The notes under the pieces: model-generated
Databases searched by the model: none
What the model was told of the DNA's origin: nothing
What the model saw: the letters and a program-made list of their open reading frames with translations, nothing else
DNA from: a candidate division CPR2 bacterium GW2011_GWC2_39_35
GTDB lineage: Bacteria > Patescibacteriota > CPR2
DNA: 64,000 nt
NCBI GenBank assembly: GCA_000995065.1
Contig: LBWX01000002.1
Location: 223,708 to 287,707, forward strand
Direction of reading: 5' to 3'
Part shown: positions 754 to 48,493 of the stretch, in pieces
How positions within the stretch are numbered: position 1 is the first letter of the stretch
Layout: the number at the start of each line of letters is the position of its first letter
Position numbers and translations under genes: made by a program

Positions 754-1131
754 ATGGCTAAAAAAGAAAAAATACTTGTTGTTGATGACGATAAAGGGCT
801 GTGTCAGCTTTATAAATTAACCATGGAACAAGAAGGTTACGAGGTTTTTACGGCAAATCAGGGAGAGGAAGGTCTAAGCAGAGCCTTGGAGATTAAACCG
901 GATCTTATCCTGCTTGATATAATGATGCCTATGATTCATGGTTTAAATGTCTTAGATATCTTAAAGGCAACTCCCGAAACAAAAGATTTGAAGGTTATTG
1001 TTTTATCGGCACTGTCTGACGAAGAGACAAAGAATAAGGCGAGAGAATTTGGTGCCTCAGATTATATTGTCAAATCTCAATCTACAATGGCTGAGGTTAT
1101 TGGAAGAGTCGCCGACATCCTAAATGCATAA
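754..1131 (+). CDS. Single-domain response regulator (CheY-like receiver)
   Basis: VVDDD near the N-terminus, a conserved LLDIMMP (phospho-acceptor Asp context) and a K near the C-terminus. A ribosome-binding site GGAGAA lies upstream. Confidence 0.8.
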   Translation: MAKKEKILVVDDDKGLCQLYKLTMEQEGYEVFTANQGEEGLSRALEIKPDLILLDIMMPMIHGLNVLDILKATPETKDLKVIVLSALSDEETKNKAREFGASDYIVKSQSTMAEVIGRVADILNA

Positions 1132-2091
1132 ATGCAAAAGATTTTAAGAAAAGAAAAATTAACAGAATTTTTAGAATACTTGGAGGTCAGGTATGATGTT
1201 TATGCCTTAGCAAAAAGTGGGGGAGAGCATGAATATCATTACGAAAAAGTTACCGCCAGGGATTATTCATATACGATAGGAATTTCTGAGGTTACTCCCA
1301 AACATTTCTTTTTGCCGGCAAGCCACGAGATGTTTAAGGCTCTGGGAACTTCTAGTAAAAAGAAAGTTATTTTTGGTGTCCATTACTTTGATATCGAAGC
1401 TATTTCTCTTTTAGATAAAGCTTTTAAATTTCCTATTACCGATCAGGAATTTTTTACTTTAAAAGAGAAGGTAATCATAATTGGGATGGATTACACCCCG
1501 GCGCCAAAAGAGGGTCACGATCTTTATTTGCAAATTTTAGAAGATGAATATGCGGTTACTGCCGGTTCCGGTGTAGGAGCGCGCCTCGCAAAACTTAAAT
1601 TTTTTGAGGAAGCTAAGGCTCATCCTAAAAAAGATTCCTGTCAAACTGAGGATGTGGTTAAAGATTCAAGATTGGCGGCGGCCATCAGGGAAAGCAAGGA
1701 CAGCAAAATTTGGGATGATTTATCCAAAAGATGTTTTGGCTGCGGCACCTGCAGTTACGTTTGCCCTGTTTGCTACTGCTTTGACATAAAAGATACCTTT
1801 GATCTTAAAGGAAACGCCAAAAGAGAAAGGTGTTGGGATTCCTGCATGCTTTCTAATTTTGCTACTATTGCTGGAGGATATGATTTTCGGCCGGAGCTAA
1901 GGAATCGGATTTATAACTGGTATTATCATAAATTTGTTAGAATGCCGAAAGAGCTAAAAAGGGTAGGCTGCGTTGGTTGTTCCAGATGCGTTAGCTTCTG
2001 TCCGGCTCGGATTAATATCCGCGAAGTCTTAAGTGATGTCTTAAAGGAATACGAGAAGAAACATGCCAAAAAATTTATATTATCCAAATAA
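1132..2091 (+). CDS. hydB: Hydrogenase-associated Fe-S subunit (sulfhydrogenase beta / AsrA-like)
   Basis: Two CxxCxxCxxxCP ferredoxin motifs (CFGCGTCSYVCP and CVGCSRCVSFCP). It is the first gene of a four-gene hydrogenase operon. Confidence 0.65.
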   Translation: MQKILRKEKLTEFLEYLEVRYDVYALAKSGGEHEYHYEKVTARDYSYTIGISEVTPKHFFLPASHEMFKALGTSSKKKVIFGVHYFDIEAISLLDKAFKFPITDQEFFTLKEKVIIIGMDYTPAPKEGHDLYLQILEDEYAVTAGSGVGARLAKLKFFEEAKAHPKKDSCQTEDVVKDSRLAAAIRESKDSKIWDDLSKRCFGCGTCSYVCPVCYCFDIKDTFDLKGNAKRERCWDSCMLSNFATIAGGYDFRPELRNRIYNWYYHKFVRMPKELKRVGCVGCSRCVSFCPARINIREVLSDVLKEYEKKHAKKFILSK

Positions 2092-2887
2092 AGCTAAAAT
2101 AATTTTTATTGAAGAGCAAGCGCCAGGAATGAGACTTTTCGGGATTAGATTTTCGGATAAAAATATCCATCAAAGTTTTAATTTTGTACCGGGTCAATTT
2201 GTTTTCTTGTCGCTCTTGGGTCACGGTGAATTTCCGGTTTCCATTAGCTCTCATCCAAATGAAAAAGATTGTTTAGAGCTTCTTATTAGAAATGTAGGGG
2301 CGGTTACGGGTGCCCTTTTTGGCTTAAATGTTGGGGCAGAAGTTGGTATAAGAGGCCCTTTTGGCAATGGCTTTGATATCCGGAAACTTTATGGAAAAGA
2401 TTTGGTAGTAGTTGCCGGAGGATGCGGTGTCGCTCCTCTTAGATCCTTGATGAAAGGGGTCCTTATTGAAAGAAAGAAGTTTAATAAGATATACTTCTTG
2501 TATGGGGCTAGAACTCCTAAGGACATGCTGTTTAAAAAAGACATTCAGGCTTGGCGAAAGCAATGCGGCGTTTATCTTACTGTAGATGAGCCGGATTCTA
2601 GTTGGAAAGAAAATGTCGGCCTTATTACTACTCTTTTTGGGAGTATTAGGGTAGACAAAGCGGCAGTGGCTGTTACTTGCGGCTCTCCGGCCATGTTTAA
2701 GTTTGTTCTTGTCGAGCTTAAGGCCTTGGGACTTAAAGACAGTAATATCTATTTGTCGTTAGAACGGAGAATGAAATGCGGCATCGGAAAATGTCAGCAT
2801 TGCACTTGCGGCGATAAATATGTATGTTTGGATGGACCGGTGTTTGCATTTAGTGAGATAAAAGAAAACCCAGAGGTGTTATTATGA
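2063..2887 (+). CDS. hydG: FAD/NAD(P)-binding oxidoreductase subunit with C-terminal 2Fe-2S (sulfhydrogenase gamma / PyrK-like)
   Basis: PyrK/AsrB-like fold signatures (GGCGVAPL) and a C-terminal Cys cluster CGIGKCQHCTCG. It overlaps the upstream and downstream genes. Confidence 0.65.
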   Translation: MPKNLYYPNKAKIIFIEEQAPGMRLFGIRFSDKNIHQSFNFVPGQFVFLSLLGHGEFPVSISSHPNEKDCLELLIRNVGAVTGALFGLNVGAEVGIRGPFGNGFDIRKLYGKDLVVVAGGCGVAPLRSLMKGVLIERKKFNKIYFLYGARTPKDMLFKKDIQAWRKQCGVYLTVDEPDSSWKENVGLITTLFGSIRVDKAAVAVTCGSPAMFKFVLVELKALGLKDSNIYLSLERRMKCGIGKCQHCTCGDKYVCLDGPVFAFSEIKENPEVLL

Positions 2888-3627
2888 AACATAAAGTAAA
2901 AATTGCAATTTTTGACTTAACAGACTGCGAAGGCTGCGAGCTTCAGTTCTTAGCTTTCGTCGAGAAAGTTTTGGAAATGGACGATCAATTAGAAATTACA
3001 AACTGGCGTCTGGCAAAACAGAAGAATGTCGAAGGCCCTTTTGACGTCGCTTTTATCGAAGGAAGCCCCTTAACCGAAGAAGACATCGAACTAATAAAAG
3101 AGATTAAGAAGCATTCCAAAGCGGTTGTGGCACTTGGAAATTGTGCTTCATTGGCCGGAATTCCGGGTCTCATTAATGGTGAGGAAAGAGAACGGCTTGC
3201 TAAAAAGATCTATGGCCCAAATTACAAACTAAGAGTTAGGGAAGTCCGCCCCCTCAGCCATTATATTGATGTCGATTATGAACTTCGAGGTTGTCCAGTT
3301 ACCGAGAAAGAACTGGAAGAGCTAGTATCAAGCCTAATTTCCGGCAAAAAAGTCGTGCCAAAGACTTATCCGGTATGCTTAGAATGTAAGGCAAATGGTA
3401 ATCCTTGCTTATTTTTAGAAAATAAAGCCTGTCTGGGAGCTGTTACGAAAGGTGGTTGTGGGGCACTTTGTCCGTCTCATGGTCACCGTTGCTATGGCTG
3501 TTTGGGTCCGGTCAGAGAAAACAATACTGATGCCATAACAAACCGTTTATCCGAGACGGTGGGCAAGGACGAAGCAATACGCCAGCTCGAGATTTTTGTA
3601 AATAACCCGATGATGGAGGAAAAATGA
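2884..3627 (+). CDS. hydD: NiFe hydrogenase small (delta) subunit
   Basis: N-terminal DCEGCE proximal-cluster cysteines and a C-terminal Cys-rich Fe-S region (CPSHGHRCYGC). It is translationally coupled (ATGA overlap) to the large subunit. Confidence 0.75.
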   Translation: MKHKVKIAIFDLTDCEGCELQFLAFVEKVLEMDDQLEITNWRLAKQKNVEGPFDVAFIEGSPLTEEDIELIKEIKKHSKAVVALGNCASLAGIPGLINGEERERLAKKIYGPNYKLRVREVRPLSHYIDVDYELRGCPVTEKELEELVSSLISGKKVVPKTYPVCLECKANGNPCLFLENKACLGAVTKGGCGALCPSHGHRCYGCLGPVRENNTDAITNRLSETVGKDEAIRQLEIFVNNPMMEEK

Positions 3628-4862
3628 AAAGTTTAATGAATAACTATATTACTAAGATCGAAGGACACGGAAATTTAAAAGTAAATTTTAATAACGAAAA
3701 AGTGGAGCTTCATGTAGAAGAAGGCGAACGGCTCTTTGAGGGACTTATTCTGGGGAGATATTTTGAGGATGGACCGATAATAACAGCTAGGATCTGCGGT
3801 GTTTGCCCCACGGCTCATACTTTTGCTTCGATAACAGCTTTAGAAAATGCTTTGGATATTAAGGTGTCGGATCACATCGCCACTTTAAGAAAAGTCATGC
3901 TTTCTTTGCAGATTTTTCAAAGTCATGTGCTGCACTTATTCTTTTTGGCGATCCCCGATTATTTAGGAATTGACAATTCCTTAGAGCTTGCTACTGCTAA
4001 TCCGGAAGTTTTTAACACGGTTTTATCCTTAAAGAGGTTGGCCGATGAAGGCATCGAACTTATTGGCGGGCGGCCGATTCATCCGATTACTGCCGTAGTT
4101 GGCGGCTTTACGAAGTTACCGGAATATAAGGACTTAGATGAGTATAAAAAGAAAATCGAAAAGAGCTTGATTCATGCCATAGAGGCTGCCAAAATTTTTA
4201 AGACGGTCAAATATCCGGAAGTAGAAAACGAAAAAGAGTATCTGGCACTCTTGGGATCAAACTATCCGCTTACAGGAGAGGTCGTTGTTTCCTCTCTTGG
4301 TAAGGGTTTTGAGGTCAAAGATTATCAAAAAGTTGTTACCGAAACTGTTAAAAGTTATTCGACTGCCAAGTTTTCTACCAAGGATGGCAAAGGCTTTATG
4401 GTCGGTGCAATTTCCAGGCTTAATCTAAAATATCCGCTTTTAAATAAAGAGGCTTTTGGTTTGGCTGAGGGTGAATTCCCAACCCATAATCCATTTAAGA
4501 ACAACTTAGCCCAGGCTATAGAATTGGTCCATTATATGGAAGAGATCATCGAGCTCATTGGCTCTCTAAAGGACGCTGATTTAAGTCATGCCCGGGATCA
4601 ATTTGAGGTAAAAGCTGGAGTCGGGGCTGGCTGTATCGAAGCACCAAGAGGGCTCCTATTTCATTATTATGAGCTTAATTCAAAAGGCATTATCACTAAG
4701 TGCGACATCATAACTCCAACTGCTCTAAACCTAACGAGTATCGAGGATGATGCGGAAGCGGTTCTTAAAACTAACGGCGGTATCTCGCAAGCGAAAAGGG
4801 AGCATGAGCTAGAGATGCTAGTTAGAGCCTACGATCCATGCATTACGTGCTCGGTACACTAA
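3624..4862 (+). CDS. hydA: NiFe hydrogenase large (alpha) subunit, group 3
   Basis: N-terminal L1 motif RICGVCPTAH and C-terminal L2 motif DPCITCSVH. The protein ends exactly at the His of L2, with no C-terminal extension. Confidence 0.85.
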   Translation: MKSLMNNYITKIEGHGNLKVNFNNEKVELHVEEGERLFEGLILGRYFEDGPIITARICGVCPTAHTFASITALENALDIKVSDHIATLRKVMLSLQIFQSHVLHLFFLAIPDYLGIDNSLELATANPEVFNTVLSLKRLADEGIELIGGRPIHPITAVVGGFTKLPEYKDLDEYKKKIEKSLIHAIEAAKIFKTVKYPEVENEKEYLALLGSNYPLTGEVVVSSLGKGFEVKDYQKVVTETVKSYSTAKFSTKDGKGFMVGAISRLNLKYPLLNKEAFGLAEGEFPTHNPFKNNLAQAIELVHYMEEIIELIGSLKDADLSHARDQFEVKAGVGAGCIEAPRGLLFHYYELNSKGIITKCDIITPTALNLTSIEDDAEAVLKTNGGISQAKREHELEMLVRAYDPCITCSVH

Positions 4863-4865
4863 GAA

Positions 4866-4925
4866 GAATAAAGAATCAGGAATTAAGAATAAAGTAAGTC
4901 TTGTTAGATCATAATTCTTTATTCT
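4866..4925. terminator. Imperfect long hairpin between convergent hydA and hypC (bidirectional terminator candidate)
   Basis: agaataaagaat...attctttattctttattct inverted repeats. Confidence 0.45.
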
Positions 4926-5153
4926 TTATTCTGGGCAGTGGCAATGGTCGTGGCTTTTGGAGAGTTCTAATATTTCGAGAGCGTCGGCTTCCGGCATTTT
5001 ATTGACGCCCAAATCTCCGTGAGCCATGATCCAGTCACCGACCTTAAGGTCTTGTATAAGCACAATATTCACTTTAAATAATTGGCCGTCGTGATCGACT
5101 TCGGCAAATTGGCCGTCTAATGTTTTTACTTGAACGGGAGTTGCTAAACACAC
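4926..5153 (-). CDS. hypC: Hydrogenase maturation factor HypC
   Basis: 75 aa beginning MCLATP (the HypC signature is MC(L/I)(A/G)(I/V)P). It is convergent with hydA. Confidence 0.8.
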   Translation of the reverse strand: MCLATPVQVKTLDGQFAEVDHDGQLFKVNIVLIQDLKVGDWIMAHGDLGVNKMPEADALEILELSKSHDHCHCPE

Positions 5154-5397: not shown

Positions 5398-5473
5398 AGG
5401 CCCATAGCTCAGGGGTTAGAGCACCGTTCTTATAAAGCGGGGGTCGCGGGTTCAAATCCCGCTGGGCCTACCA
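5398..5473 (+). tRNA. tRNA with anticodon TAT (Ile, AUA-decoding), CCA encoded
   Basis: Manual cloverleaf: acceptor AGGCCCA/TGGGCCT, D-stem GCTC/GAGC, anticodon stem CCGTT/AGCGG (one G-U pair), loop CTTATAA, T-arm GCGGG-TTCAAAT-CCCGC, discriminator A then CCA. Confidence 0.7.
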
Positions 5474-5521: not shown

Positions 5522-5956
5522 ATGTCAACTAAAAACCAAGAATATAAAGACGAAATCTTAGTGACACGGGTAGGGGCTCAGTGTCTTCTAGTGAAAGACA
5601 ACAAGATACTACTCGGCAAAAGAAAAAATGTTTTTGGTGATGGCCATTGGGGACTTCCCGGCGGTCATTTAGAAAAAGGGGAGACCATTCTTGAGGCAGC
5701 GGCCCGGGAGCTAGAAGAAGAGACAGGAGTAAAGGCGATTTCTAGCCAGGTTATCTCCGTTAGCGATGCAAATTTGGAAAACAATTATCATCTTCAAATT
5801 GGTGTATTGGTTACGAAATGGGATGGAGATCCTCAAATAAAAGAGCCAAATAAATGTAGCGAGCTCTCATTTTTTGCTTTAGAAGAATTGCCGGAACCAA
5901 TTTTTATTTCCGCAAAACCCCTAATCGAGAAATTTATTAAGAATGCTTTATATTAA
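5522..5956 (+). CDS. NUDIX hydrolase
   Basis: Nudix box GGHLEKGETILEAAARELEEETGV. Confidence 0.85.
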   Translation: MSTKNQEYKDEILVTRVGAQCLLVKDNKILLGKRKNVFGDGHWGLPGGHLEKGETILEAAARELEEETGVKAISSQVISVSDANLENNYHLQIGVLVTKWDGDPQIKEPNKCSELSFFALEELPEPIFISAKPLIEKFIKNALY

Positions 5957-6598: not shown

Positions 6599-6673
<75 letters not shown>

Positions 6674-7844: not shown

Positions 7845-9494
7845 GTGATATGCTTGAAATGGTATTTAAGATTCATTATTTTGCTGTGCGTCTTGGTTTC
7901 GGTATTATTACCGATAAATCCCGATTATGCTAATGCGGAAAGTGTTCATTTAAAGGTTCCTTTTATTCCCCAAGTGCCGCCTGGCCATTGGGGTTACAAA
8001 AGTAACATCGATCATGGCACGTATAATTGCGGGCAGACTTCGGCATTGATGGTAATGTCTTATTATAAGGTTGAACTGCCTGTTTCTGACAAGATCGCTG
8101 AAATAGACAACTGGTTAGCTCAAAAGTATAACGATCCGAAATATTCTGATCATAATAGCTGGTATACGGATACTGATCAACTTGCCGTATTGGCCAAGGA
8201 GTACGGAGGTTTTAAAGAAGCCAGGGCAGAAAATAATTGGAATATTGATAAACTAAAAACCGAGCTTATTAACGGTTGTCCCGTGATAGTAGCGGTACAT
8301 ATACGTATGAATTCGTCTTCTGGTGGACATTTTATGGTCTTAACAGGAATAGATGATGATTATGTGTATGTTAATGATCCAGGCCTAACAAAAGGCATCG
8401 ATAATAAGTATCCTATCTCACAGTTTAAAAGATCTTGGGCAGTTCAAAATAATGCCGTAGTTACTATTCATGAGAAGAAGAATATCGCAATTACCTTCCT
8501 CTTTGATACCACTCACAGCGTTAATGAAAAGGAAATTGAGGCTGCTAAAAGAAACGCTATTTCCGTAGTGAAGGAGCTAGCATTCTTCAAGCCTTATGTC
8601 GCTGCGGCTGATTATCGCGACGTTGTTGAAGAAGGCAAGCAAAATTCTCTGTACGGTATAGAAGGTGATTATCCTTTTAAACCAAGGTTATGTTTTACTC
8701 AGGACTTAAGGCTGGCTGAATCAACCATTAATTCCATCGCTATTGGACCAGCGGGAAGCGGTGGTAACAAGGAGGCAGAGTCAGTTTGCTCAGCTTTAAA
8801 AAGGGGAGTTTCGGGTAATGAGCTTGGCAGCTGGCCTATTGGCTCGGAGCAAAATGTAATTATTTATGGTAATGCAGGCGGTCATATAGAGAGTAAGCCG
8901 GATTCTAATGATGGAAAAGAACCGGTTACCGGCTATTATCGAAGTGATGTTGTACGCGAAGCCTTTAGAAGAGGTGTCTCAAATAGAACGATTATTTTCG
9001 GAGTAGCAACAAGTAACCAGTTTGGTGTGGTTGATGAATTTTCGCGTTACTCGAGGCTTACGGGCGGTTTTGCATCGCTTCTTAACGAAACATCCGATTA
9101 TACGCCCGAATTAGTAGCAAAAAGGGTAGCTAAAGAGATAGAAAATCGTAAGAACCTTGCTTGTGAGAATGTCGAGGTTAGGTTGCCGTCAAAACTGATT
9201 GACTTGACTAGCTTTGAGAATTCTTTTGAAGTTGATCTTGGCTTGCCATCCTCAATTAGTAGAGCGGAGGTTGATGATCTCTCGATTAGGCTTAATTTTG
9301 GAATTCCGCAATGCAAAGTTATGCCGGGAGGTAATAATCAAACTCTTAGGCTATGGTTTGAAAACGAGAGGGCAAGAAAATATCTAAAGAATGGAGCTCA
9401 AGAGATAAAGGTCTATGGTTTTTCCGTAGACAAAGAAGAAAACATAAGATATTTCTTAGGTTCAGCAAATGCGGAGGTGATACATTCGAAATAA
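7845..9494 (+). CDS. Secreted protein with N-terminal C39-like (papain-fold) cysteine peptidase domain
   Basis: YNCGQTSALMVMSYY (catalytic Cys context of Peptidase_C39_2) and GGHFMVLTGIDDDYVYVNDP (His). It has a signal peptide. The likely true start is TTG at 7854 (AGGAG nine nt upstream). Confidence 0.65.
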   Translation: MICLKWYLRFIILLCVLVSVLLPINPDYANAESVHLKVPFIPQVPPGHWGYKSNIDHGTYNCGQTSALMVMSYYKVELPVSDKIAEIDNWLAQKYNDPKYSDHNSWYTDTDQLAVLAKEYGGFKEARAENNWNIDKLKTELINGCPVIVAVHIRMNSSSGGHFMVLTGIDDDYVYVNDPGLTKGIDNKYPISQFKRSWAVQNNAVVTIHEKKNIAITFLFDTTHSVNEKEIEAAKRNAISVVKELAFFKPYVAAADYRDVVEEGKQNSLYGIEGDYPFKPRLCFTQDLRLAESTINSIAIGPAGSGGNKEAESVCSALKRGVSGNELGSWPIGSEQNVIIYGNAGGHIESKPDSNDGKEPVTGYYRSDVVREAFRRGVSNRTIIFGVATSNQFGVVDEFSRYSRLTGGFASLLNETSDYTPELVAKRVAKEIENRKNLACENVEVRLPSKLIDLTSFENSFEVDLGLPSSISRAEVDDLSIRLNFGIPQCKVMPGGNNQTLRLWFENERARKYLKNGAQEIKVYGFSVDKEENIRYFLGSANAEVIHSK

Positions 9495-10680: not shown

Positions 10681-11103
10681 TTATAGTTTCTGTAATAGCT
10701 TTCTAAAATATTTTCTTAAATTTGGATAGGTAAGTTTGTCTTCAACTTCATGAATCGGCACCCAGTCTACTTGGTCGCCTTCGTATTCTATGTTGGTCTC
10801 GGTGTTTAAAGGTCGCAGCAAAAACATGTGGACAACAACGTTTTTGTCTTCAAAGTCGTTGTAATATTCGTCGGGCGGTAGAGATTTAATCATTTCTGTA
10901 TCAATGCCGGTTTCTTCTTTAATTTCCCTAATGGCGGCAAATTCAAAGTCTTCGCCTTCGTCAACATGCCCCTTGGGGAAAGCCCAGTCATTGTGAAATT
11001 TGCGGTACAGTAAAAGCACGTACTTTTGGCCGTTTTCTTCCCGAAAAACTATGCCTCCGGCTTCTACAATTCTGCCTTTCTTGTCAAAAACTTTCTTTTT
11101 CAT
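10681..11103 (-). CDS. NUDIX hydrolase
   Basis: Nudix box PKGHVDEGEDFEFAAIREIKEETG. Confidence 0.85.
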   Translation of the reverse strand: MKKKVFDKKGRIVEAGGIVFREENGQKYVLLLYRKFHNDWAFPKGHVDEGEDFEFAAIREIKEETGIDTEMIKSLPPDEYYNDFEDKNVVVHMFLLRPLNTETNIEYEGDQVDWVPIHEVEDKLTYPNLRKYFRKLLQKL

Positions 11104-11273: not shown

Positions 11274-11350
11274 GGCAGGGTAGCTCAGTCGGTTAGAGCG
11301 TGGGAATCATAACCCCAAGGTCGCGAGTTCGATCCTCGCCCCTGCTACCA
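11274..11350 (+). tRNA. tRNA(CAT): elongator Met or Ile2-type, CCA encoded
   Basis: Acceptor GGCAGGG/CCCTGCT, loop ATCATAA, T-arm GCGAG-TTCGATC-CTCGC, A31.C39. Confidence 0.75.
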
Positions 11351-13721: not shown

Positions 13722-14588
13722 TTATAGAGAAATAATAATAAGGCCACTTACTATTATAAGTCCTGCTAAATATTGTTTTGTCTGAAGTTTTTCTTTATAA
13801 ACAAGCTTTCCGTAAATAATGGAAACCATTGGTCTTGCCGATCCCACGGCTGTAACGAGACTTACCGGGGCTACTCTTACGCCGTAGTTGTAAACAAGAC
13901 CGCCAAAACCGGCAAGAATGGCAACAAAGAAAATATATTTCATACTGCTTTTATCACTTAAAGAAAAGCTCCGGTTGGTAGCTAAAATATAAACTGCTGC
14001 ACCAATTGCAACACCAGTTTCAACTAATAGCGCAGCTAAAATTGGTCCGAAGGTATTAATGGGGATCTTAATTAGAAAAAAGTAAGCCCCAAGCCCTAAG
14101 CTGCCAGCTACTGCCAGCGGTACTCCGCTTGAGTAAGAAAAAAGGTGGGATTTCTTAATCTCCTTAAAATTAATCGATATCAGAATATTTCCTAAAACAA
14201 TTAAAAAAACTGCTATTACTTGTATTGTGTTTAAGGTTTCTTTAAAGAAGATCAAGGCGAGGATAATAGTAAAGATTGCAGATGATCCCGTGATTGGTGT
14301 TACCACGCCTACTTTCCCAAGCTTAAGTGATTGATATAAAGCAATGAGCGGGATTGCTCCGAGGCTTGACACCAAAATAGTAGTGATTATTGTTTGAGGA
14401 TCTAAGAAAATATTTTCATGATTGCTGAGCAGAAAAACCAGAAGTAGTAATATGCTAATAAAGACATTGCGATAAAATAACAGTTTCTGACTTCCATCTT
14501 TCTTAGCAGGCACTTTTGAAATCGCATTTGAAAGACCATAGCTAAGCATAGACATTAGTCCAAATAAAATACCAAGCGCTGTATTCAT
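13722..14588 (-). CDS. EamA/DMT-family transporter
   Basis: About 10 transmembrane segments with the duplicated EamA pattern. Confidence 0.7.
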   Translation of the reverse strand: MNTALGILFGLMSMLSYGLSNAISKVPAKKDGSQKLLFYRNVFISILLLLVFLLSNHENIFLDPQTIITTILVSSLGAIPLIALYQSLKLGKVGVVTPITGSSAIFTIILALIFFKETLNTIQVIAVFLIVLGNILISINFKEIKKSHLFSYSSGVPLAVAGSLGLGAYFFLIKIPINTFGPILAALLVETGVAIGAAVYILATNRSFSLSDKSSMKYIFFVAILAGFGGLVYNYGVRVAPVSLVTAVGSARPMVSIIYGKLVYKEKLQTKQYLAGLIIVSGLIIISL

Positions 14589-14778
14589 AAAGAAATTTTA
14601 GCTTGATTAAGTTATTTTGTCGATGCGATTTAGATTCATGATTTGTGTCGATAAACGGAGAATCTTAGGATAATTATTCTAGTCCGGGTAATTCTAAAGT
14701 TTTTTCATTTATTCTTTGCTGTTTCGAGATCTCTATTTCGCTCTTCAAAAGATAAGCGCAAAGTGCTAAAATAGCGAG

Positions 14779-16461
14779 GTGAGAAAATACCTCTACGAGA
14801 TCTCGAGAAAGAAGCTTACCGTTGGATCAGCGGCTATTATTTTGAGCTTTACTTCGCTGGCTTCTAATATTTTAGGTTTGTACCGAGAGCGAATTATAGC
14901 TTCCATGTTTGGTACCAACTATTTTGCCGAGATTTACGGCGCCAGTTTTAGACTGCCGGATCTCATCTTTAATATTCTTATCTTAGGGGCCTTATCGGCC
15001 GCTTTTATCCCGATTTTTATAGAAAGATTAGTGGAGGACGAGGATAAAGAGTCGGCTTGGCGGCTTGCAAATTCCTTTTTAAATTTGCTTCTTATTGTTG
15101 CGGTTGTTGGGGCAATCTTAATCGCCATTTTAGCGCCATACATCGTGCCCTTACTTGTGCCTGGTTTTAAACATAAACAGGTTGGAGTGGACATGATGCA
15201 AATTACCGTGAACACCACGAGACTTCTTTTATTGTCCCCAATCTTTATGTGTATTTCGGGGGTATTTTCGGGCATCTTAAACTCTTTTAAGAGGTTTGTA
15301 GCTTATTCGATCGCACCATTAATCTATAATTTATCAATTATTATAGCCGCTATTTTTCTGGCAGAGGGACACCAAGTTCCGGTTTATGGGCTAGCAGTTG
15401 GTGTAATAATCGGTGCTTTTTTCCATGCTGCTATTCAAATTCCGGCTGTAATAGATGCGGGTTTTAAATACCGTTTCATTCTAGATTTAAAAGATAATGG
15501 TCTTCGAAAAATCGTGAGGCTTATGGGGCCCAGAACCTTCACTATTGGGGTTACGCAAATTAATTTACTAGTTGATACCATAAAAGCGTCTTATCTTGTT
15601 GGGGGCATTGCGATTCTAAACTACGCTAATAATATTCAGACTTTGCCGACGGTGGTTTTTGGAATTGCCATTGCAACGGCGGCTTTTCCATATCTTTCGG
15701 AGGCGCTATCTTCTAAGAGACAAGAAGATTTTAGAAAAGCTTTTTCCTGGAGCTTTAAAAGGATTTTGTATTTTATGATTCCGGCCTCGGTGGGTATCAT
15801 TGTTCTAAGAGCGCAGATTGTAAGACTGATTTTTGGAATCGGAAATTTTGATTGGTCTAGCACGGAGCCTACGGCTTATGTTTTGGGTATTTTTGGCTTC
15901 GGTCTGGTAGCCCAAGGACTTCTTCCTCTTTTAACACGCACTTTTTACGTTCTTCAAGACACAAAGACTCCTCTTAAGATTGCTATTATTGGAATGGTAA
16001 TAAACGCTCTTGGGACAATATTCTTGCCCGGACTTTCTTTAACACTGCCGCAAATTATTTACAATCCATCAATCGGATTTTATGTGTTATGGTACCAATT
16101 TACATTGGGGGTCGGTGGTATTGCTTTGGCGTTTATAGCGGCTGGCTTTGTAACAATGTTTATGTCTTATATAGTTCTTCATAAACGACTTGGCAATTTA
16201 CATGACGCAGATATTATTAAAGATTTTGTTAAAATTTTGCTAGCATCAATAATAATGGGTATTGTCGCTCATTACGCTTTATACCTTTTTGATCCGTTAG
16301 TTCAAAACTCGGGCGGTAAGATCGCTAAGGGACTACTTCCGCAAACAATTTTATCGATTATTTTGGCCGTTATTTCTTATTTTAGTTTGACCTTAGTTAT
16401 GAAAATCGGGGAGTCCCGGGAAATATTAAGGAAAATTCAGAAAGTATTGGCGAAAAGCTGA
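14779..16461 (+). CDS. murJ: Lipid II flippase MurJ (MviN)
   Basis: 14-TM MOP-family signature and the N-terminal SRxLGxxRE motif. Confidence 0.85.
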   Translation: MRKYLYEISRKKLTVGSAAIILSFTSLASNILGLYRERIIASMFGTNYFAEIYGASFRLPDLIFNILILGALSAAFIPIFIERLVEDEDKESAWRLANSFLNLLLIVAVVGAILIAILAPYIVPLLVPGFKHKQVGVDMMQITVNTTRLLLLSPIFMCISGVFSGILNSFKRFVAYSIAPLIYNLSIIIAAIFLAEGHQVPVYGLAVGVIIGAFFHAAIQIPAVIDAGFKYRFILDLKDNGLRKIVRLMGPRTFTIGVTQINLLVDTIKASYLVGGIAILNYANNIQTLPTVVFGIAIATAAFPYLSEALSSKRQEDFRKAFSWSFKRILYFMIPASVGIIVLRAQIVRLIFGIGNFDWSSTEPTAYVLGIFGFGLVAQGLLPLLTRTFYVLQDTKTPLKIAIIGMVINALGTIFLPGLSLTLPQIIYNPSIGFYVLWYQFTLGVGGIALAFIAAGFVTMFMSYIVLHKRLGNLHDADIIKDFVKILLASIIMGIVAHYALYLFDPLVQNSGGKIAKGLLPQTILSIILAVISYFSLTLVMKIGESREILRKIQKVLAKS

Positions 16462-19024: not shown

Positions 19025-19191
19025 TGTTAAGTTACCTCCTTTCGTATCGGGATTTTAGATTGGCTTTATTATAGCAAAAAATTCCTATTTTGTTAATAGA
19101 ATAGAAAAGTAATACTAACCTAATTGTCATATTATTTGTGATATTTTTAGTTAAGATTGTTTTGGTTAGAAACTATAGTTATAATATCAGA

Positions 19192-19650
19192 ATGGACTCT
19201 TTATTTTTTCAATATTGTCCAAAAATTGCTGTATTTAGTCAGGATGGATCAAGCGTTCTTTTGTGTCGTCGAAAAGGGGAGGCGGACTACGATGGCGTGT
19301 TCTCATTCATTGGTGGCAAGATGGAGCACAAGGATTTGTCAATTATCGATGCACTGAGTAGGGAGAAGACCGAAGAGGTCGGCGAATTGTTTCGGATAAA
19401 AGTTCTGCCTCATTACAGCATTGATACTTTTTTCGTAAAGAAGGATGGCAGTCGCATGATTCTTCCTCATTATTATGCCGTGCATCAATCGGGTGAAATC
19501 AATTTAAGCGAAGAATATGATGATTATCGTTGGGTTCCTTTAAACTCCCTTGATGAATTTGAGCCAAAGATTGAAAATATTGCTTGGATTGCAACACTTT
19601 TAAGCCGCGCTGCGACAATTGCAGAGGATGAGGATTTTGTTGCCGTTTAG
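19192..19650 (+). CDS. NUDIX hydrolase
   Basis: Nudix box GGKMEHKDLSIIDALSREKTEEVGE. Start placed at the in-frame Met MDSLFF. Confidence 0.75.
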   Translation: MDSLFFQYCPKIAVFSQDGSSVLLCRRKGEADYDGVFSFIGGKMEHKDLSIIDALSREKTEEVGELFRIKVLPHYSIDTFFVKKDGSRMILPHYYAVHQSGEINLSEEYDDYRWVPLNSLDEFEPKIENIAWIATLLSRAATIAEDEDFVAV

Positions 19651-31610: not shown

Positions 31611-31853
31611 CTGATTATATTCGATTTTTTCTTATTTATGAACAATTTAATAAAAACTTAAGCATTTTTTAATTAATCGTTAAAGATAATGCCAGATAAT
31701 GCAATAAAGGGTTCTTTGTGAAGTAGTTGCGTTCAGCTGAAACTGCAGATATTTTAAATTATCCAACAAATAGATATTAAACATTTCTATGTTTACCCGG
31801 ATATTATTTATAAGTTGAATGAGTAAACCTAATATGATTAAATGATTAGGAAT

Positions 31854-32528
31854 ATGAGAATATTACTAACAGAAGATAATAAGGATTTAGCCAAATCTAT
31901 TAAGGCTGCCTTAGAATCTGAGTGCTATGAGGTTGACTTGGCAGGTGATGGTGAAAAGGCATCTTTTTTGGCGCGGACAAACGATTATGATCTCATCATT
32001 TTAGACATTAACCTTCCAAAAAAAGACGGGAAGCAAGTTTGCACTGAGATCAGAGAGGATGGCAAGATTGTGCCAATACTCATGCTATCTGTAATATCAG
32101 AAATTGGCACCAAAGTAGATTTGCTCGATACTGGAGCTGACGACTATCTGACAAAACCATTTTCCCAAAAAGAGCTTTTGGCAAGAATTAGGGCCCTTCT
32201 AAGGCGACCCCAGGAGATTAAAGGCGAGGTTTTGGAAGTCGGGGATCTTATTGTTGACACGAAAAAGCACATTGTTAAGAGAAAAGGCAGCAATATCGAT
32301 CTTACGATAAAAGAATACATTTTGCTTGAGTATCTGATAAAAAATGCCGAATCTGTACTTACCCGAAGTATGATCTTGGAGCATGTATGGGATATGAATG
32401 CTGATCTTTTTTCGAATGCTATAGAAGTTCATATTTCAAACTTGAGAAAAAAGATTGATCTTGCCGGCATGAAAAAACTAATCCATACTGTGCCTGGCAG
32501 GGGGTATAAACTGGAGCTCAAAAAATAA
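31854..32528 (+). CDS. OmpR/PhoB-family response regulator
   Basis: Receiver domain (ILLTEDN, DLIILDINLP) plus a winged-helix trans_reg_C domain. AGGAA lies 4 nt upstream of the chosen ATG. Confidence 0.85.
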   Translation: MRILLTEDNKDLAKSIKAALESECYEVDLAGDGEKASFLARTNDYDLIILDINLPKKDGKQVCTEIREDGKIVPILMLSVISEIGTKVDLLDTGADDYLTKPFSQKELLARIRALLRRPQEIKGEVLEVGDLIVDTKKHIVKRKGSNIDLTIKEYILLEYLIKNAESVLTRSMILEHVWDMNADLFSNAIEVHISNLRKKIDLAGMKKLIHTVPGRGYKLELKK

Positions 32529-32791: not shown

Positions 32792-34189
32792 TTGAAAATG
32801 AACCAGTTTTTCTACAACTTGGTTAAACCAAGGTCTAAAGATGAGGACACTAAGCGGCAAGAGTTTATCTTAAATATTTTGCTGGCTGGTGTTCTTGTTT
32901 TGGCATTTATGGCTTTTTTATCGGCCTTTTTTGCATCAATAGCTGTGGGAGAATACCGGGGGGTTCCCGTATTATTTATCTTAATATTATTTCTAATTTT
33001 TCTGGGTTTATATAAGTTATCAAGGCTCGGATATTATCGGACATCTTCCTACATACTTATCTCTTTTTTCCTCATTCCTTCTGCTTACACGGCTCTTTAT
33101 TATGGATTTGAGACGCCCCAGGTTCTTTTAACTTATTCAGTCGTTATAATTATGTCAGGTATTTTAATCAGTACTCGTTTTTCCTGGATAGTGACCTTGG
33201 CTATTACCACGCTCACTCTGGGATTTGCCTATTTACAAATCCAGGGAACGATAAAGCCGAATCTATATTGGAAGAAAGAAACAGCCGGAGTCGATGATGC
33301 TTTTGTTTTTGTTTTTTCCTTTATAAACATTATGATAGTGGCTTGGCTTTCGAATAGAGAGATTGAAAAATCCTTAAAAAGGGCGAGACGTTCCGAAGCG
33401 GCGTTAAAAAAGGAAAGGGATCTTTTAGAAGTTAAGGTTGAGGAAAGGACAAGGGCTTTAAAAGAATCTCAGGCCGAGAAAATGACTCAATTATCAAGGT
33501 TTGCAGAATTCGGTCGTCTGGCTTCGGGCGTTTTTCATGACCTAATTAATCCTCTTACTATCGTGTCTCTAAACTTAGAGAACATCAAAGATTCTAGTCA
33601 TAAGGAGTTAAACAATGTAAATTCAAGTATTAAAAGAGCAACGGATGCCAGCCGGAGGATGGAAAGCTTTATTTTGGCAATTAAAAGACAGCTTAGCCAG
33701 CAGGGGTCGCTAGAGAAGTTTAATGTATGCGAAGAAATAAGGCAAGTGGCCCAGATTCTATCTTTCAAAGCTCAAAAAGCCGATGTTTCAATAAAGCTTA
33801 AAGGCAAAAATGATGTTTTTCTCTATGGCAATTCCTTAAAATTCTATCAGGTGGTCTCTAACATTATTTCTAATGCTATCGATGCCTATTATGAATTTGG
33901 ATCGGCACATAACCGTATTGTTTCGGTTGATTGTGTAAGGAAGGGTAAAAAATTTAGAATTACCATTCAGGATTGGGGCAAGGGAATTGCGTCTCAGAAT
34001 AAAGAAAAGATTTTTACCCCCTTTTTTACTACCAAGGATGTCGAGAATGGTACCGGCATTGGACTCTCGATTGCCAAGGAGGCTGTAGAAAAGGATTTTG
34101 GCGGGACTATTAGTGTAAACAGTACAGTAGGCAAAGGTACGGTTTTTACAATCGATTTACCTATAATAGAGCCTAAAAAGGATGATTAA
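32792..34189 (+). CDS. Membrane sensor histidine kinase
   Basis: Multiple N-terminal transmembrane segments, HisKA H-box FHDLINPLT, and HATPase_c motifs (N, G1 DWGKGI, G2 GTGIGL). Confidence 0.85.
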   Translation: MKMNQFFYNLVKPRSKDEDTKRQEFILNILLAGVLVLAFMAFLSAFFASIAVGEYRGVPVLFILILFLIFLGLYKLSRLGYYRTSSYILISFFLIPSAYTALYYGFETPQVLLTYSVVIIMSGILISTRFSWIVTLAITTLTLGFAYLQIQGTIKPNLYWKKETAGVDDAFVFVFSFINIMIVAWLSNREIEKSLKRARRSEAALKKERDLLEVKVEERTRALKESQAEKMTQLSRFAEFGRLASGVFHDLINPLTIVSLNLENIKDSSHKELNNVNSSIKRATDASRRMESFILAIKRQLSQQGSLEKFNVCEEIRQVAQILSFKAQKADVSIKLKGKNDVFLYGNSLKFYQVVSNIISNAIDAYYEFGSAHNRIVSVDCVRKGKKFRITIQDWGKGIASQNKEKIFTPFFTTKDVENGTGIGLSIAKEAVEKDFGGTISVNSTVGKGTVFTIDLPIIEPKKDD

Positions 34190-42491: not shown

Positions 42492-45224
42492 TTGCGGTAC
42501 AGTTACTTGAAAACTGAATATTTATCAGTGAACATAGGAGATTTAGGATTAGGAAAAGGAGTGGATTTCGTGAAAGAGATAGTAGTAGAGCAAGGCGCAG
42601 GGGATGAAGAAAAAAGAATGATTGAAAACATGCGAGGGATAGCAGTGGATGATGCGGAATTCGTAATAATGGCAGAAGAAAAGAAAGACACAGTGAATAA
42701 AAAACTATGGCTTGAAAACATGACGCGGATAACCGAAGATGATCTTCAATTCGTTTCGGGCACGGCTTGGAGGTTCTATAAACAGAATTCCATACTATTG
42801 GGAATGCTGGGTATAGACTTTTGTAGCCTGGAAGATGCGGCTTTCGGCGGTATGGAGGATGCGTGTAAAAGATACGATGAGACAAGAGGAAAAAGCTTGC
42901 GAGGATTCTATTACATTCGGGTTGTCGGAAGCATGTGGGATTTCATAAGAAGCCGCTCGCTTATCTCCAGATCAGCTCTAAAGGCCATAAAGGAAGTTCA
43001 GAGCTATGTTGCAAGCCAAAGCCAAGATGGCCGTGTAGTAACAAGCTCGGAGATATATGAAATATTTTCCGAGGCTCACGTAATGGCAATGGCGCAATCT
43101 AATAACAGGGTCGCTTTTCCGCTGTCGCTGGATCAAATTGTGTTGTATGGCGGCCAAGGGGGCAGGGTACAGGCTGAGACTTCTTATCATAACCTCATTT
43201 CTGATGATAGCGATACTGAAGACGATGCGACTTACCAGCAGGCTCTTGAAGAGCTTCGTGATGTCATCAAAGAGGTTAGTCTTAACTATGGTTCGTCGCC
43301 CGAGGTGAAGGAAAGAGCATTGTCGTTAATGGAAAAACGGTATAATTTCGATAGCGACTCAAAAGCTCCTTCGTTTAGGGAGCTAGGAGATGAATTCGGT
43401 TGTACCGAAAGTCGAGTAAGCCAAATTCACAGTAAGCTAATCAGCAAGCTGAAGGATGAAGAACCTGCATTGGATATTCTTAGGGACCTGGCGAGCAGGA
43501 TTAGCCGTCAAGGCATCTCTTCTCGTCAATCTGTTCGGATAGTATCCTTTGGTCAGCCGGACCTGACTCCTCCTCCGCACATTCGCCAGAAAAGAAGAAT
43601 ATCTAAACGTGAAGATGTCTACGACAAAAATGTAGCATCAGAGGAAACGTTGTTGGAGGCGGAGGATATTGAAGTCGAAGGAGTATCCGATGACAGCAGC
43701 ACCCCTCAGGATACTAAAGCTGTTTTTTTGTTTGATTCAGACATCAGGGCCTATAAGATTATGCTCGATTTATTGAAGAAGAGCAAAGATGGATTGGTGC
43801 GACTCAAAGAAAAGCATAAGGTTACTGATGAAGTACTTCTAAAGCTTAGGCGCAAGGGCTTTGCGATAATGCAAAGTGACGGCTCTGTGCTGGTGCAGAA
43901 GAAGAAATACATCAGGATGCCAGATCCTGAGTCAGAGTCCAGGCAGGATAAAGCTGTTTTTTCTTCGAGGAAAGCTAGGATTAAAGATAGCGAACCAGGG
44001 AAACGAGGGGCGCGAAAACTCACTGATTCTGATTGGGAGGAGCGCCACAAAGAGACGCTCGCGAAACTTTATGAGCGTTTCCCAGACGGATGTGTCGTTG
44101 GCGGACTGGGGACGATCTTTATCGAACTGAATATGAGAGGAGGTTTCAATTATCTTAAGAGATTCAAAGAAGACTCCGGTTTTCTGGAGGAGACTAGTCG
44201 CCTAAGGCATAGTTTTTCTGAGAAGGCAGAAGCTTATCTGGAATCTATAGGCAAGATCCTAATCAAGACGGAACCGGAGGATGTGCCCGAAGAGTCCAAA
44301 AACATAACTGCCACATCCGGAAAACCCGGAAGACAAAAGCTCTCTTCTGACCATTGGAGTGCTCGTCATAAAGAGACGCTAAAAAAACTCTACGACCAAT
44401 TCCCCGATGGATGGGTCATTGGTGGACTGAGTACGGTCTTTAAGGATCTGGGCATTGTCGGAGGACAGAGTTATCTTCAGAGGTTCAGAGACGTATCTGG
44501 TTTCCTTCTAAAGGTCAATGGATGGAAACATTGTTTCTCTGATGAGGCAATTGCCTATCTGGAATCGATTGGGCTAACCATTATCGAGCCAGAAGAGGAC
44601 GACTCGCTGGAAACCGATGATATCTCGACTTCAGGATCAAGAAGAGGCGGAAGGCGGAAGCTTACTGATGCAGACTGGGATGTTCGTTTGAGAGTCACGG
44701 TAGAGAAGCTTCATGAACGATTCCCAGATGGGTGGATAGTCGGTTCCCTGACTGAGATCTTTAGAGACTTAGGCATCAAGGGAGGATACAACTATCTTCA
44801 CAGGTTCAGAGAGTCCTTCTACATTCGCAAGGTTAAACATAGACAACATCGCCTTACCGATATTGCCAGCAGGTATCTCGAATCGATTGGAAAGAATATA
44901 ATCGAATCGGATCCAGGGAAGTACGATCAGGAACGATTCTTGCGGTCTTCCCAAAAGGCGGTCGAGATTTTAACGCCCATGGTTAAAACTATGAAGCAAG
45001 ATGACTGGCTTGCTGAGTTCTTGAGTAATGTTGTGCAAGAGAACGGTGGCTTTTGTTACAAAACGGATCTTGAAACTACTTGCAAAGACAAATATGGTTT
45101 TGTAAAAAAAGTCATGCTTAAGACTGCACGAAATGACGGGTACGTCAGCGAGGAAAGTGGCGGTAGCGGCGAGATAACCGAAAAAGGACAGGAGTTCTTA
45201 AGACAGAAGGGCTATATTAACTAA
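42492..45224 (+). CDS. Sigma-70-family-like protein (regions 2 and 4) fused to a ~590-aa C-terminal extension with three ~95-aa tandem repeats
   Basis: Region 2-like YDETRGKSLRGFYYIRVVGSMWDFIRSRS and region 4-like FRELGDEFGCTESRVSQIHSKLISKLK. Three repeats of LTD.DWE.RHKETL.KLYE.FPDGWV.GGL.T.F..LGI.GG..YL.RF...SGFL......S..A.AYLESIG. The gene looks locally GC-richer. Confidence 0.55.
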   Translation: MRYSYLKTEYLSVNIGDLGLGKGVDFVKEIVVEQGAGDEEKRMIENMRGIAVDDAEFVIMAEEKKDTVNKKLWLENMTRITEDDLQFVSGTAWRFYKQNSILLGMLGIDFCSLEDAAFGGMEDACKRYDETRGKSLRGFYYIRVVGSMWDFIRSRSLISRSALKAIKEVQSYVASQSQDGRVVTSSEIYEIFSEAHVMAMAQSNNRVAFPLSLDQIVLYGGQGGRVQAETSYHNLISDDSDTEDDATYQQALEELRDVIKEVSLNYGSSPEVKERALSLMEKRYNFDSDSKAPSFRELGDEFGCTESRVSQIHSKLISKLKDEEPALDILRDLASRISRQGISSRQSVRIVSFGQPDLTPPPHIRQKRRISKREDVYDKNVASEETLLEAEDIEVEGVSDDSSTPQDTKAVFLFDSDIRAYKIMLDLLKKSKDGLVRLKEKHKVTDEVLLKLRRKGFAIMQSDGSVLVQKKKYIRMPDPESESRQDKAVFSSRKARIKDSEPGKRGARKLTDSDWEERHKETLAKLYERFPDGCVVGGLGTIFIELNMRGGFNYLKRFKEDSGFLEETSRLRHSFSEKAEAYLESIGKILIKTEPEDVPEESKNITATSGKPGRQKLSSDHWSARHKETLKKLYDQFPDGWVIGGLSTVFKDLGIVGGQSYLQRFRDVSGFLLKVNGWKHCFSDEAIAYLESIGLTIIEPEEDDSLETDDISTSGSRRGGRRKLTDADWDVRLRVTVEKLHERFPDGWIVGSLTEIFRDLGIKGGYNYLHRFRESFYIRKVKHRQHRLTDIASRYLESIGKNIIESDPGKYDQERFLRSSQKAVEILTPMVKTMKQDDWLAEFLSNVVQENGGFCYKTDLETTCKDKYGFVKKVMLKTARNDGYVSEESGGSGEITEKGQEFLRQKGYIN

Positions 45225-45298
45225 ACTGTATAGGCGAGGTGACAAAAGGGACCGGTTCTTAATTTGAAGCTAATACTACTTAATGTTTTATTAAGTAA

Positions 45299-45790: not shown

Positions 45791-46075
45791 TTGCGACAAA
45801 TAAGTACTTAGCAGATTAGATTATTTGCATCATTAATAAAATAAGCTACCGAGAAATAGCTTATTAAGTATGCGTTCCATTTGGCGAGCCGAGATGTGCT
45901 TGAACTACTTCGTTTAACCGTGTTAATTTCAGACGTTCGTACTAGTATCTAGTTTCCATAATATGTATGATCAAATTAGATTAATAATGGGGTTATATGT
46001 GGGAGAAAATTAAAGATACTGTACTTTTGCATCAAGCGCAAAGCATAGTATTGTCTTTGATCGTTATTATCGGTA

Positions 46076-46426: not shown

Positions 46427-46516
46427 TTTATAGTTCAGAGATTATAAAAACGCAAATACCGTGCTCAAAAGAGAACCGTCCCCTAAAAGTCTTACTGGAA
46501 CTATTCAATACTTACT

Positions 46517-47530: not shown

Positions 47531-47616
47531 TTGCTATAACTATACCACAAAATTAGCTTATTTTAGTATGCGTTCTATTCGGCGAGGTTAGTAGCGTTGG
47601 AACCTGCTCAAAATTC

Positions 47617-48306: not shown

Positions 48307-48493
48307 GTCTAGATATTAGCAAAAAAAGTGCTTTGCAGAAAGGCTATTTTGCGTCATTAACAGAAATAAGCTGACCAAAGTCAGCTTATTCAGGATCTTA
48401 GGACAACCGGCCCCTAAGGCTTTCCTATTTTAACCACCACCAAAGGTGGTTGTGAAAATATGGCGATCCGAGTAGCGCAGGAACTAAATTAGA

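Follow-up and report, generated by a model that had tools for sequence, protein, structure and literature searches.

A predicted group 3b [NiFe]-hydrogenase with an extension-less large subunit, encoded beside two-component genes in a candidate division CPR2 bacterium

The cleavage of a C-terminal peptide from the large subunit is, to our knowledge, treated as a near-universal last checkpoint of [NiFe]-hydrogenase assembly. Here we describe a four-gene operon, hydBGDA, whose large subunit (HydA) has no such peptide; it lies between two-component genes and a convergent hypC paralogue in a 64-kb stretch of DNA from a candidate division CPR2 bacterium, one of the candidate phyla radiation (CPR). 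This stretch is referred to as the window, its first letter being position 1, and coordinates refer to it unless a related locus (L001 etc.) is named. The closest characterised systems are those of the Thermococcales, where the soluble sulfhydrogenases I and II (SHI and SHII) of Pyrococcus furiosus (HydBGDA and ShyBCDA) and Hyh of Thermococcus kodakarensis have the same four subunits and the same beta-gamma-delta-alpha order as the window. The window subunits are ~35–40% identical to these counterparts, the Fe-S and FAD/NAD motifs are conserved, and the L2 motif DPCI(T/S)CSVH is nearly equal, with Thr in the window for Ser. The Thermococcales precursors, however, carry a four-residue tail that is removed by FrxA (-VVRL in SHI; PMC2865534), and this removal is required, SHI being inactive without the protease (Sun et al. 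2010; PMC2865534). Both the SHI and the HyhL precursor are 428 residues long with the L2 His at position 424, whereas HydA of the window has none of the four extra residues. Host and surroundings differ as well, since the window belongs to a mesophilic, small-genome CPR bacterium in which the operon is accompanied by a receiver–histidine kinase–receiver gene set and a tailed hypC, unlike in the Thermococcales.

Within the CPR, Jaffe et al. (2020) described a group 3b hydrogenase, 'hyd1', with large and small subunits, AsrA/AsrB-like beta and gamma subunits and a hypC-like neighbour (PMC7304191). The CPR host, the subunit set and the hypC-like neighbour of 'hyd1' correspond exactly to the window, a likeness of arrangement and not of tree placement. 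The word 'maturation' is absent from that paper, and the passages covered here mention neither the C-terminus nor a receiver/kinase synteny. Naturally extension-less large subunits are listed in reviews for groups 2b and 2d (H2 sensors), 4c (CO-dehydrogenase-linked), 4e (Ech) and 4g, but group 3b is not named among them (PMC12134894, PMC7294309), and our literature search found no publication stating that group 3b enzymes are without a C-terminal extension. The large subunits of the listed groups end at or near the L2 His/Arg and do without an endopeptidase, like that of the window, and they still use the Hyp machinery (PMC7294309, PMC12134894). In subunit architecture, however, the window enzyme is of group 3b and unlike all of them; the regulatory hydrogenases of group 2b, for instance, are two-subunit proteins (HupUV/HoxBC) without a diaphorase, whereas the window enzyme does not belong to group 2 and has both a beta and a gamma subunit.

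Group 3b assignment and the end of the large subunit

Group assignment was made by similarity ranking (Pfam, NCBIfam and the Protein Data Bank, PDB) together with a rough neighbour-joining tree. HydB (Pfam Fer4_22, 103 bits) scored 124, 116 and 90 bits with the NCBIfam models ShyB, HydB and AsrA, and its sole PDB match was the beta subunit of P. furiosus SHI (9nez_B, 111 bits, E = 5e-31). HydG, which contains the Pfam domains NAD_binding_1, DHODB_Fe-S_bind and FAD_binding_6, reached 249 bits with the NCBIfam hydrogenase gamma model, 215 bits with ShyC and 194 bits with HydG, the top PDB match being SHI gamma (9nez_C, 183 bits, E = 6e-53). For HydD (Pfam Oxidored_q6, 71.5 bits; NCBIfam HydD 178 and ShyD 173 bits) the top PDB match was SHI delta (9e15_A, 170 bits, E = 5e-49), with the Cys motifs aligned. 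HydA (Pfam NiFeSe_Hases) scored 272 bits with ShyA and 264 with HydA against 161 with VhuA and 126 with FrhA, and among solved structures SHI alpha came out best (238 bits), followed by T. kodakarensis HyhL (236 bits), with Mvh (group 3c, 193 bits), F420-type (3a, 143 bits) and NAD-reducing (3d, 129 bits) enzymes further down.

Because all four subunits are closest to those of P. furiosus SHI and the AsrA/AsrB-like beta and gamma subunits are present, the operon is predicted to encode a four-subunit group 3b [NiFe]-hydrogenase. The original prediction, that of a group 3 (sulfhydrogenase-type) operon with the Pyrococcus-type hydBGDA organisation, is thus borne out, as the best solved relatives are the SHI subunits and the NCBIfam ShyA-D/HydA-D models score best or near-best. 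It should be underlined that the equivalog cutoffs of these models were not reached (for the HydA subunit 272 vs 700 for ShyA and 264 vs 880 for HydA, the other subunits likewise falling far under), and the enzyme is therefore a distant member of group 3b and not an orthologue of SHI or SHII. The motifs coordinating the Ni-Fe site are intact: the L1 motif RICGVCPTAH occupies residues 56–65 (Cys58, Cys61), the L2 motif DPCITCSVH residues 404–412 (Cys406, Cys409), and all 67 invariant positions of a 41-sequence alignment are present in the window HydA. The same sequence is on record as NCBI protein DDW69_04475 (candidate division CPR2 bacterium).

The coding sequence of hydA ends with GAT CCA TGC ATT ACG TGC TCG GTA CAC TAA, so that the stop codon directly follows His412, and a second in-frame TAA lies two codons past it. 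Assemblies from ENA (Rifle ANAN16), Logan and NCBI provided 23 contigs with the receiver and hyd genes and 22 with a gene at the far end of the window, and at least 22 contigs agree in how the locus is assembled. A truncation of HydA by misassembly or frameshift was considered and rejected, since the +1 frame encodes an unrelated 12-residue peptide, the locus occurs in 23 contigs and the end is conserved in homologues. Both parts of the earlier claim, that the large subunit ends exactly at the His of DPCxxCxxH and that it lacks the C-terminal peptide that is otherwise cleaved off, therefore hold at the DNA level, and the assembly error named as the possible objection is excluded.

Conservation of this end was followed in several sets of sequences. 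All 120 of the best homologues listed (45–100% identity; CPR, Altiarchaeota and uncultured organisms) stop at the L2 His. We also collected 80 loci from GTDB species representatives using the peptide pattern RAYDPCIT, which biases this set toward the subclade of the window; reading at the DNA level, 74 of them stop directly after the L2 His, and the remaining six carry C-terminal tails of 6–17 residues, e.g. FLEVKFV. The 74 extension-less loci span Patescibacteria, Altiarchaeota, DPANN, Desulfurivibrionaceae/Desulfobulbales, Nitrospirae, Thermodesulfobacteriota and Zixibacteria. As a pattern-free set, 1.84 billion 50%-identity representatives were scanned with HMMER, which yielded 491 matches at E <= 1e-30; of these, the 118 full-length best representatives were used for a C-terminus tally and a tree. 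Here 45 end at the His and 73 have tails of at least four residues, mostly 4–24, while the 18 representatives closest to the window HydA are all extension-less. In the rough neighbour-joining tree of these 3b-like large subunits, 37 extension-less representatives, including the window HydA, form one contiguous block made up of CPR, DPANN, Altiarchaeota, Desulfobulbales and Nitrospirae sequences; a few further losses of the extension lie outside the block, and the tree requires a minimum of seven state changes. The only endopeptidase gene found across the 80 loci adjoins a large subunit with a seven-residue tail (L077), which is consistent with the absence of the endopeptidase tracking the extension-less trait.

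Judged from these sequences, the lack of the extension is fixed in a large, mostly uncultivated 3b subclade and not peculiar to the CPR2 genome. As the tail of the reference 3b enzymes is just four residues long and the trait is clade-wide, it is less surprising than the original prediction implied: tails are shortest in group 3b as it is, and their complete absence from a large subclade adds modestly to that. The CPR 3b hydrogenase clade itself is already published; the new part, the cleavage-free state of a 3b subclade, is of modest size. It adds a group 3b branch (CPR, DPANN, Altiarchaeota, Desulfobulbales, Nitrospirae) to the exceptions that are 'pre-processed' without cleavage, and it makes the lack of an endopeptidase gene something to be expected in these small genomes, not evidence that the pathway is incomplete. 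Extension-less 3b enzymes may also be easier to express heterologously, given that P. furiosus SHI requires its own protease in E. coli.

One variant of HydA was observed among the assemblies. In one assembly of the same organism (L082:12871-14073, protein P0002) the large-subunit gene has an in-frame deletion of 12 residues (RPIHPITAVVGG), corresponding to window positions 4071–4106, between two GG repeats, and invariant His153, Pro154 and Gly161 are removed by it. This is either a slipped-repeat variant that probably inactivates HydA or an assembly artefact.

The hypC paralogue and the maturation genes

The small protein encoded convergently to hydA belongs to the HypC family (Pfam HupF_HypC, PF01455, 60.2 bits at a cutoff of 28.5; TIGR00074, 46.5 bits, marginally under the cutoff of 48). 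It starts with MCLATP, including the essential Cys2, and ends in a His/Cys-rich tail, SKSHDHCHCPE. Gene-neighbour counts, taken over 78 loci, showed a HypC-like gene next to the hydrogenase in 45, usually in convergent orientation. Among 46 small HypCs, 17 have at least three His/Cys in the tail, which is ~10–20 residues long, whereas the five HypCs encoded in hypC-hypD-hypE operons have none or one. The tails vary in sequence, as illustrated by SHDHCHCPE in the window, SSCHHSHK in L001, CHHHHDHTHEHAHSH in L028 and also GHCHNCGHDCH; that their composition is conserved and their sequence is not suggests metal binding, which at this stage is speculation. Tails of this type are encoded at window positions 4926–4970 (the C-terminal hypC codons, minus strand) and in the HypCs of L001, L005, L011, L014, L028, L030, L031, L034 and L046.

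A tree of HypC proteins places the window protein with those of L001 and L062 and with the second, tailed HypCs of L005 and L011, the hypD/E-linked HypCs standing apart. Since L005 and L011 also carry hypC-hypD-hypE, some relatives of the window HypC coexist with a canonical set as a second HypC-family chaperone. The simplest reading is that the window hypC is a hydrogenase-dedicated paralogue, assumed to act together with a canonical set of Hyp proteins whose genes lie elsewhere. In this it would resemble HybG, HoxL and HupF, which are hydrogenase-specific HypC paralogues; the window protein likewise has Cys2 and the PF01455 fold and is encoded beside the hydrogenase, but its His/Cys tail (SHDHCHCPE) is short compared with the longer HupF-type extension.

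Other maturation genes were sought in ~83 kb around the operon, comprising the window, 9.2 kb upstream (L081, 100% identical to the window across 1200 bases) and ~10 kb downstream (L088). Within the window, tblastn with HypD, HypE, HypF, endopeptidase, HypC::HydE and HydG of relatives matched hypC only, scans for HypA, HypB and endopeptidase motifs were negative, and Pfam annotation of essentially all open reading frames (ORFs) gave no hyp gene besides hypC. The upstream and downstream extensions contain neither hyp nor endopeptidase genes, which confirms the claim that no other hyp genes are nearby. The remaining window genes are housekeeping genes, among others those for FtsH, MurJ, LepA, BacA, NDK, RecQ and ribosomal proteins.

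Some related loci harbour unusual genes beside their hydrogenases. A HypC::HydE fusion of ~425 residues, in which an N-terminal HypC domain is joined to a HydE-type radical-SAM maturase, stands together with a small hypC. This pair lies beside extension-less 3b genes in 8 of the 80 loci (L014, L015, L022, L035, L037, L044, L049 and L065; e.g. L037:9269-12153 and L015:9691-11199, both minus strand). The fusion scores 55.6 bits with the HypC model TIGR00074 and 266 and 253 bits with the HydE equivalog (cutoff 254.6), and five of these eight loci (L035, L037, L044, L049 and L065) also encode a true HydG (553 bits, CX2CX22C motif). These [FeFe]-hydrogenase-type maturases occur without HydF or HydA of that type in the locus. 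HypC::HydE is widespread in Patescibacteria, where NCBI annotates it as plain HydE, and a literature search found no publication describing such a fusion. On three long contigs (L085, 10001–11281; L086, 1564–2829; L087, 10001–11284) it has no adjacent NiFe hydrogenase, and in L086 an [FeFe]-hydrogenase large-subunit fragment (PF02906) lies ~10 kb away, leaving the client enzyme ambiguous. A role of HydE/HydG-type radical-SAM maturases in maturing these NiFe enzymes was accordingly set aside, as the link is not exclusive (L085–L087) and the genes are absent from the window.

A conserved operon of hypC, a gene for an EamA-family transporter and DUF6390 (PF19927) is convergent to hydA in ~15–21 Patescibacteria and DPANN loci (e.g. 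L030:11033-12832, L024:2746-4629 and L027:12011-13880, all minus strand). YCGP and KPHHxFHV motifs are conserved in DUF6390, whose C-terminal region is weakly HypC-like, and the operon may be an uncharacterised hydrogenase accessory module. Neither DUF6390 nor its EamA neighbour had a tblastn match in the window at E <= 1e-3, and the EamA gene of the window (13722–14588) was unmatched too. In L005 a short HypF of 377 residues (14598–15979, minus strand) consists of the Kae1-like C-terminal domains alone, without the acylphosphatase, zinc-finger and YrdC domains, and adjoins the second, His/Cys-tailed hypC; weak partial HypF matches similar to it were seen in L011 and L066, and loci of the L005 type also have hypC-hypD-hypE. 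Together with the tailed HypC, DUF6390 and HypC::HydE are candidate maturation accessories in reduced genomes.

Two-component genes, proposed function and competing explanations

The original prediction placed a histidine kinase and a stand-alone receiver immediately upstream of hydB, and both were found there. The kinase is cut by the window start; its full length, 558 residues, is seen in L081 (8289–9965), with PAS_4/PAS_9, HisKA and HATPase_c domains, ~5 transmembrane helices (hydrophobic segments within residues 19–170) and the H-box SHEMRTPL. In the 125-residue receiver the acidic pocket reads VVDDD, the acceptor Asp lies within LLDIMMP, and the conserved Ser and Lys are present; the stop codon of the receiver gene abuts the hydB ATG. 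A second receiver of 122 residues precedes the kinase in L081, giving the order receiver (122)–kinase (558)–receiver (125), which recurs in L001 and L062. Direct adjacency of a receiver to hydB was seen in ten loci (the window, L001, L014–L016, L019, L020, L023, L025 and L062), a recurring synteny that makes a functional link between the hydrogenase and the two-component system plausible. As neither receiver has an output (DNA-binding) domain, direct transcriptional control by the receivers is unlikely; they could act through a phosphorelay, by protein–protein interaction or as a phosphate sink. A second two-component pair is present in the window, consisting of an OmpR-type response regulator with a DNA-binding domain (31842–32528) and a histidine kinase (32792–34189), and this pair could provide the output for the receivers beside the hydrogenase, which have none of their own.

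From the observed subunit identities, the intact ligand motifs, the missing cleavable peptide and the conserved synteny, we consider it likely that the operon encodes a cytoplasmic alpha-delta-beta-gamma group 3b [NiFe]-hydrogenase of a fermentative CPR2 bacterium, whose HydA needs no cleavage, whose Hyp proteins are encoded elsewhere and which is linked to the receiver–kinase–receiver genes. HydA would carry the NiFe(CN)2CO site and HydD the Fe-S relay, and the AsrA/AsrB-like HydB and HydG would move electrons to or from NAD(P)(H) via Fe-S clusters and FAD. If direction and cofactor are taken by analogy with P. furiosus SHI, the enzyme may vent surplus reductant as H2 or regain NAD(P)H from H2. 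HydA is synthesised with the 'processed' C-terminus, the His of DPCxxCxxH, in place from the start. It follows directly from the sequence that, with no C-terminal peptide, the nickel-dependent HybD/FrxA-type endopeptidase step, which is the last proof-reading stage of canonical maturation, is without substrate and therefore dispensable. HypC presumably passes the Fe(CN)2CO unit on to apo-HydA, the His/Cys tail of HypC may add metal binding, and the genes for the other Hyp functions are assumed to lie elsewhere in the genome. The receiver–kinase–receiver genes probably form one transcription unit with hydBGDA and, as suggested solely by the recurring synteny, may tie the expression or activity of the hydrogenase to a signal sensed at the membrane or by the PAS domain. 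On this account the operon is an ordinary hydrogenase with a modest, clade-wide maturation variant, and an ordinary member of the published CPR clade.

Several points weigh against this account. Neither hypA, hypB, hypD, hypE nor hypF was found within the ~83 kb around the operon, and among the at least 120 Patescibacteria matches listed in a HypD search (at least 65% identity) none is labelled CPR2, although this listing is uninformative for CPR2. Moreover, both receivers are without an output domain, and with NCBIfam scores so far under the equivalog cutoffs the substrate or cofactor specificity (NAD or NADP, sulfur reduction) would not be safely transferable. The first of these points also agrees with a streamlined or unconventional maturation, in which part or all of HypABDEF is missing and the tailed HypC doubles as a nickel chaperone or a non-Hyp route of related lineages is used. 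In the fullest form of this reading, the CPR2 bacterium and, more widely, the extension-less 3b subclade would have a stripped-down cofactor insertion with no endopeptidase, no HypA/HypB and a tailed HypC as both iron-unit and nickel chaperone, and the Fe(CN)2CO may come from a source other than HypDEF, with HypC::HydE plus HydG and hypC-EamA-DUF6390 as candidates. We regard this as improbable, in the general as in the fullest form. It is true that hypC stands alone within the region covered, that hypA and hypB motifs occur in none of the 80 related loci, that His/Cys tails are strongly enriched in hydrogenase-linked HypCs (the 17 of 46 above), and that related extension-less loci have odd neighbours, namely HypC::HydE with or without HydG, hypC-EamA-DUF6390 and the short HypF. 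However, hyp genes are frequently unlinked to the structural genes, so that their absence from 83 kb is weak evidence, and HypD is widespread among Patescibacteria. In genomes with hypC-hypD-hypE, the orthologue of the window HypC is the second HypC, which suggests a canonical partner set. The unusual neighbour genes are all absent from the window, HypC::HydE is also found far from NiFe genes, once ~10 kb from an [FeFe]-hydrogenase fragment, and may serve [FeFe] enzymes, and metal binding by the HypC tail is putative.

Two further explanations carry still less weight. If the hydrogenase were the input of the receiver–kinase–receiver system, it would be a module sensing H2 or redox state, like the extension-less 2b system HoxBC-HoxJ-HoxA, and not a bulk metabolic enzyme. 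The lack of an extension on the large subunit would fit such a role, as would the adjoining kinase with its PAS domain and the two receivers, which seem to share the operon, and the receiver-hydB synteny of ten loci; but the sequences are of group 3b and not group 2, and the enzyme has the complete NAD(P)-linked beta/gamma diaphorase that sensors are without. In addition, the trait occurs in 74 of the 80 loci and two-component genes in just ~10–12, and the small subunit (247 residues; SHI delta chains, 256–266) is not lengthened at its C-terminus by a docking extension, all of which makes a sensory role very unlikely. We attach equally little credence to the operon being a non-functional relic, kept in a reduced genome in which the enzyme cannot be matured and is decaying. 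That no maturation gene except hypC is seen in the window would be in line with decay, as would the loss of invariant His153 and Pro154 in the one assembly with the deletion (P0002, L082), whereas the four ORFs are intact with translationally coupled overlaps, and all invariant and ligand positions are conserved. The locus is moreover present in 23 contigs, with the full 412-residue large subunit in three of the four places shown, and the clade is large and well conserved across phyla. An ordinary group 3b enzyme with its Hyp proteins encoded elsewhere thus remains the preferred explanation.

Operon layout and other features of the window

The layout of the operon and its flanks is given in Table 1. 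In line with the original prediction of four overlapping genes in beta-gamma-delta-alpha order with a convergent hypC, the ORF listing gave successive overlaps of 29, 4 and 4 nt between hydB, hydG, hydD and hydA, and Pfam and NCBIfam confirmed the identities. This gene order is kept in most of the 78 loci.

Table 1. Position and properties of hydBGDA and the elements flanking it in the window
Feature	Position	Strand	Properties
Sensor histidine kinase, C-terminal 238 aa	2-718	+	Cut by window start; HATPase_c 102.7 bits and HisKA (Pfam)
Stand-alone receiver	754-1131	+	125 aa; Response_reg 87.2 bits, sole Pfam domain
hydB, beta subunit	1132-2091	+	319 aa; Fe-S electron-transfer protein, AsrA-like, two CxxCxxCxxxCP-type motifs
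hydG, gamma subunit	2063-2887	+	274 aa; FAD/NAD(P)-binding diaphorase, C-terminal [2Fe-2S] motif, AsrB/PyrK-like
hydD, delta subunit	2884-3627	+	247 aa; predicted [NiFe]-hydrogenase small subunit, Fe-S cluster chain
hydA, alpha subunit	3624-4862	+	412 aa; predicted [NiFe] catalytic large subunit
Inverted repeat, long, AT-rich	4865-4932	.	Between convergent hydA and hypC; overlaps hypC stop codon
hypC paralogue	4926-5153	-	75 aa; GTG start; convergent to hydA

The inverted repeat between hydA and hypC is probably a bidirectional terminator shared by the two genes. The RNA fold of positions 4855–4935 has a free energy of -19.6 kcal/mol (z = -3.66), and none of 200 shuffled sequences was as stable. 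A simple terminator scan, which requires G+C-rich stems, did not call the 4865–4932 hairpin, and the counts from a promoter and terminator scan of the window were not above those of shuffled sequence. An Rfam scan of the window detected tRNAs only and no riboswitch near the hyd operon. One of these, directly downstream of the hypC region, is a tRNA-Ile with anticodon TAT (UAU) at 5398–5473; tRNA-Ile(UAU) is an uncommon bacterial means of AUA decoding. Two tRNA-Met(CAT) genes are located near it (6599–6673 and 11274–11350).

Farther from the operon, the 64 kb contain four NUDIX hydrolase genes (5522–5956; 10681–11103, minus strand; 19138–19650; 61058–61600), unusually many for a small genome. 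A 549-residue, secreted-looking protein with Peptidase_C39_2 and Peptidase_C70 (papain-like) domains is encoded at 7845–9494 and is kept downstream of the locus in all assemblies seen. The region 42492–49879 is a possible toxin-immunity or defence islet, comprising a 910-residue ORF without a Pfam match (42492–45224), an Imm5-like immunity protein (45299–45790), several ORFs of unknown function and a 461-residue HEPN_Apea-domain protein (48494–49879, minus strand). Between 48 and 50 kb the window has a low G+C content (0.35) and a reversed GC skew.

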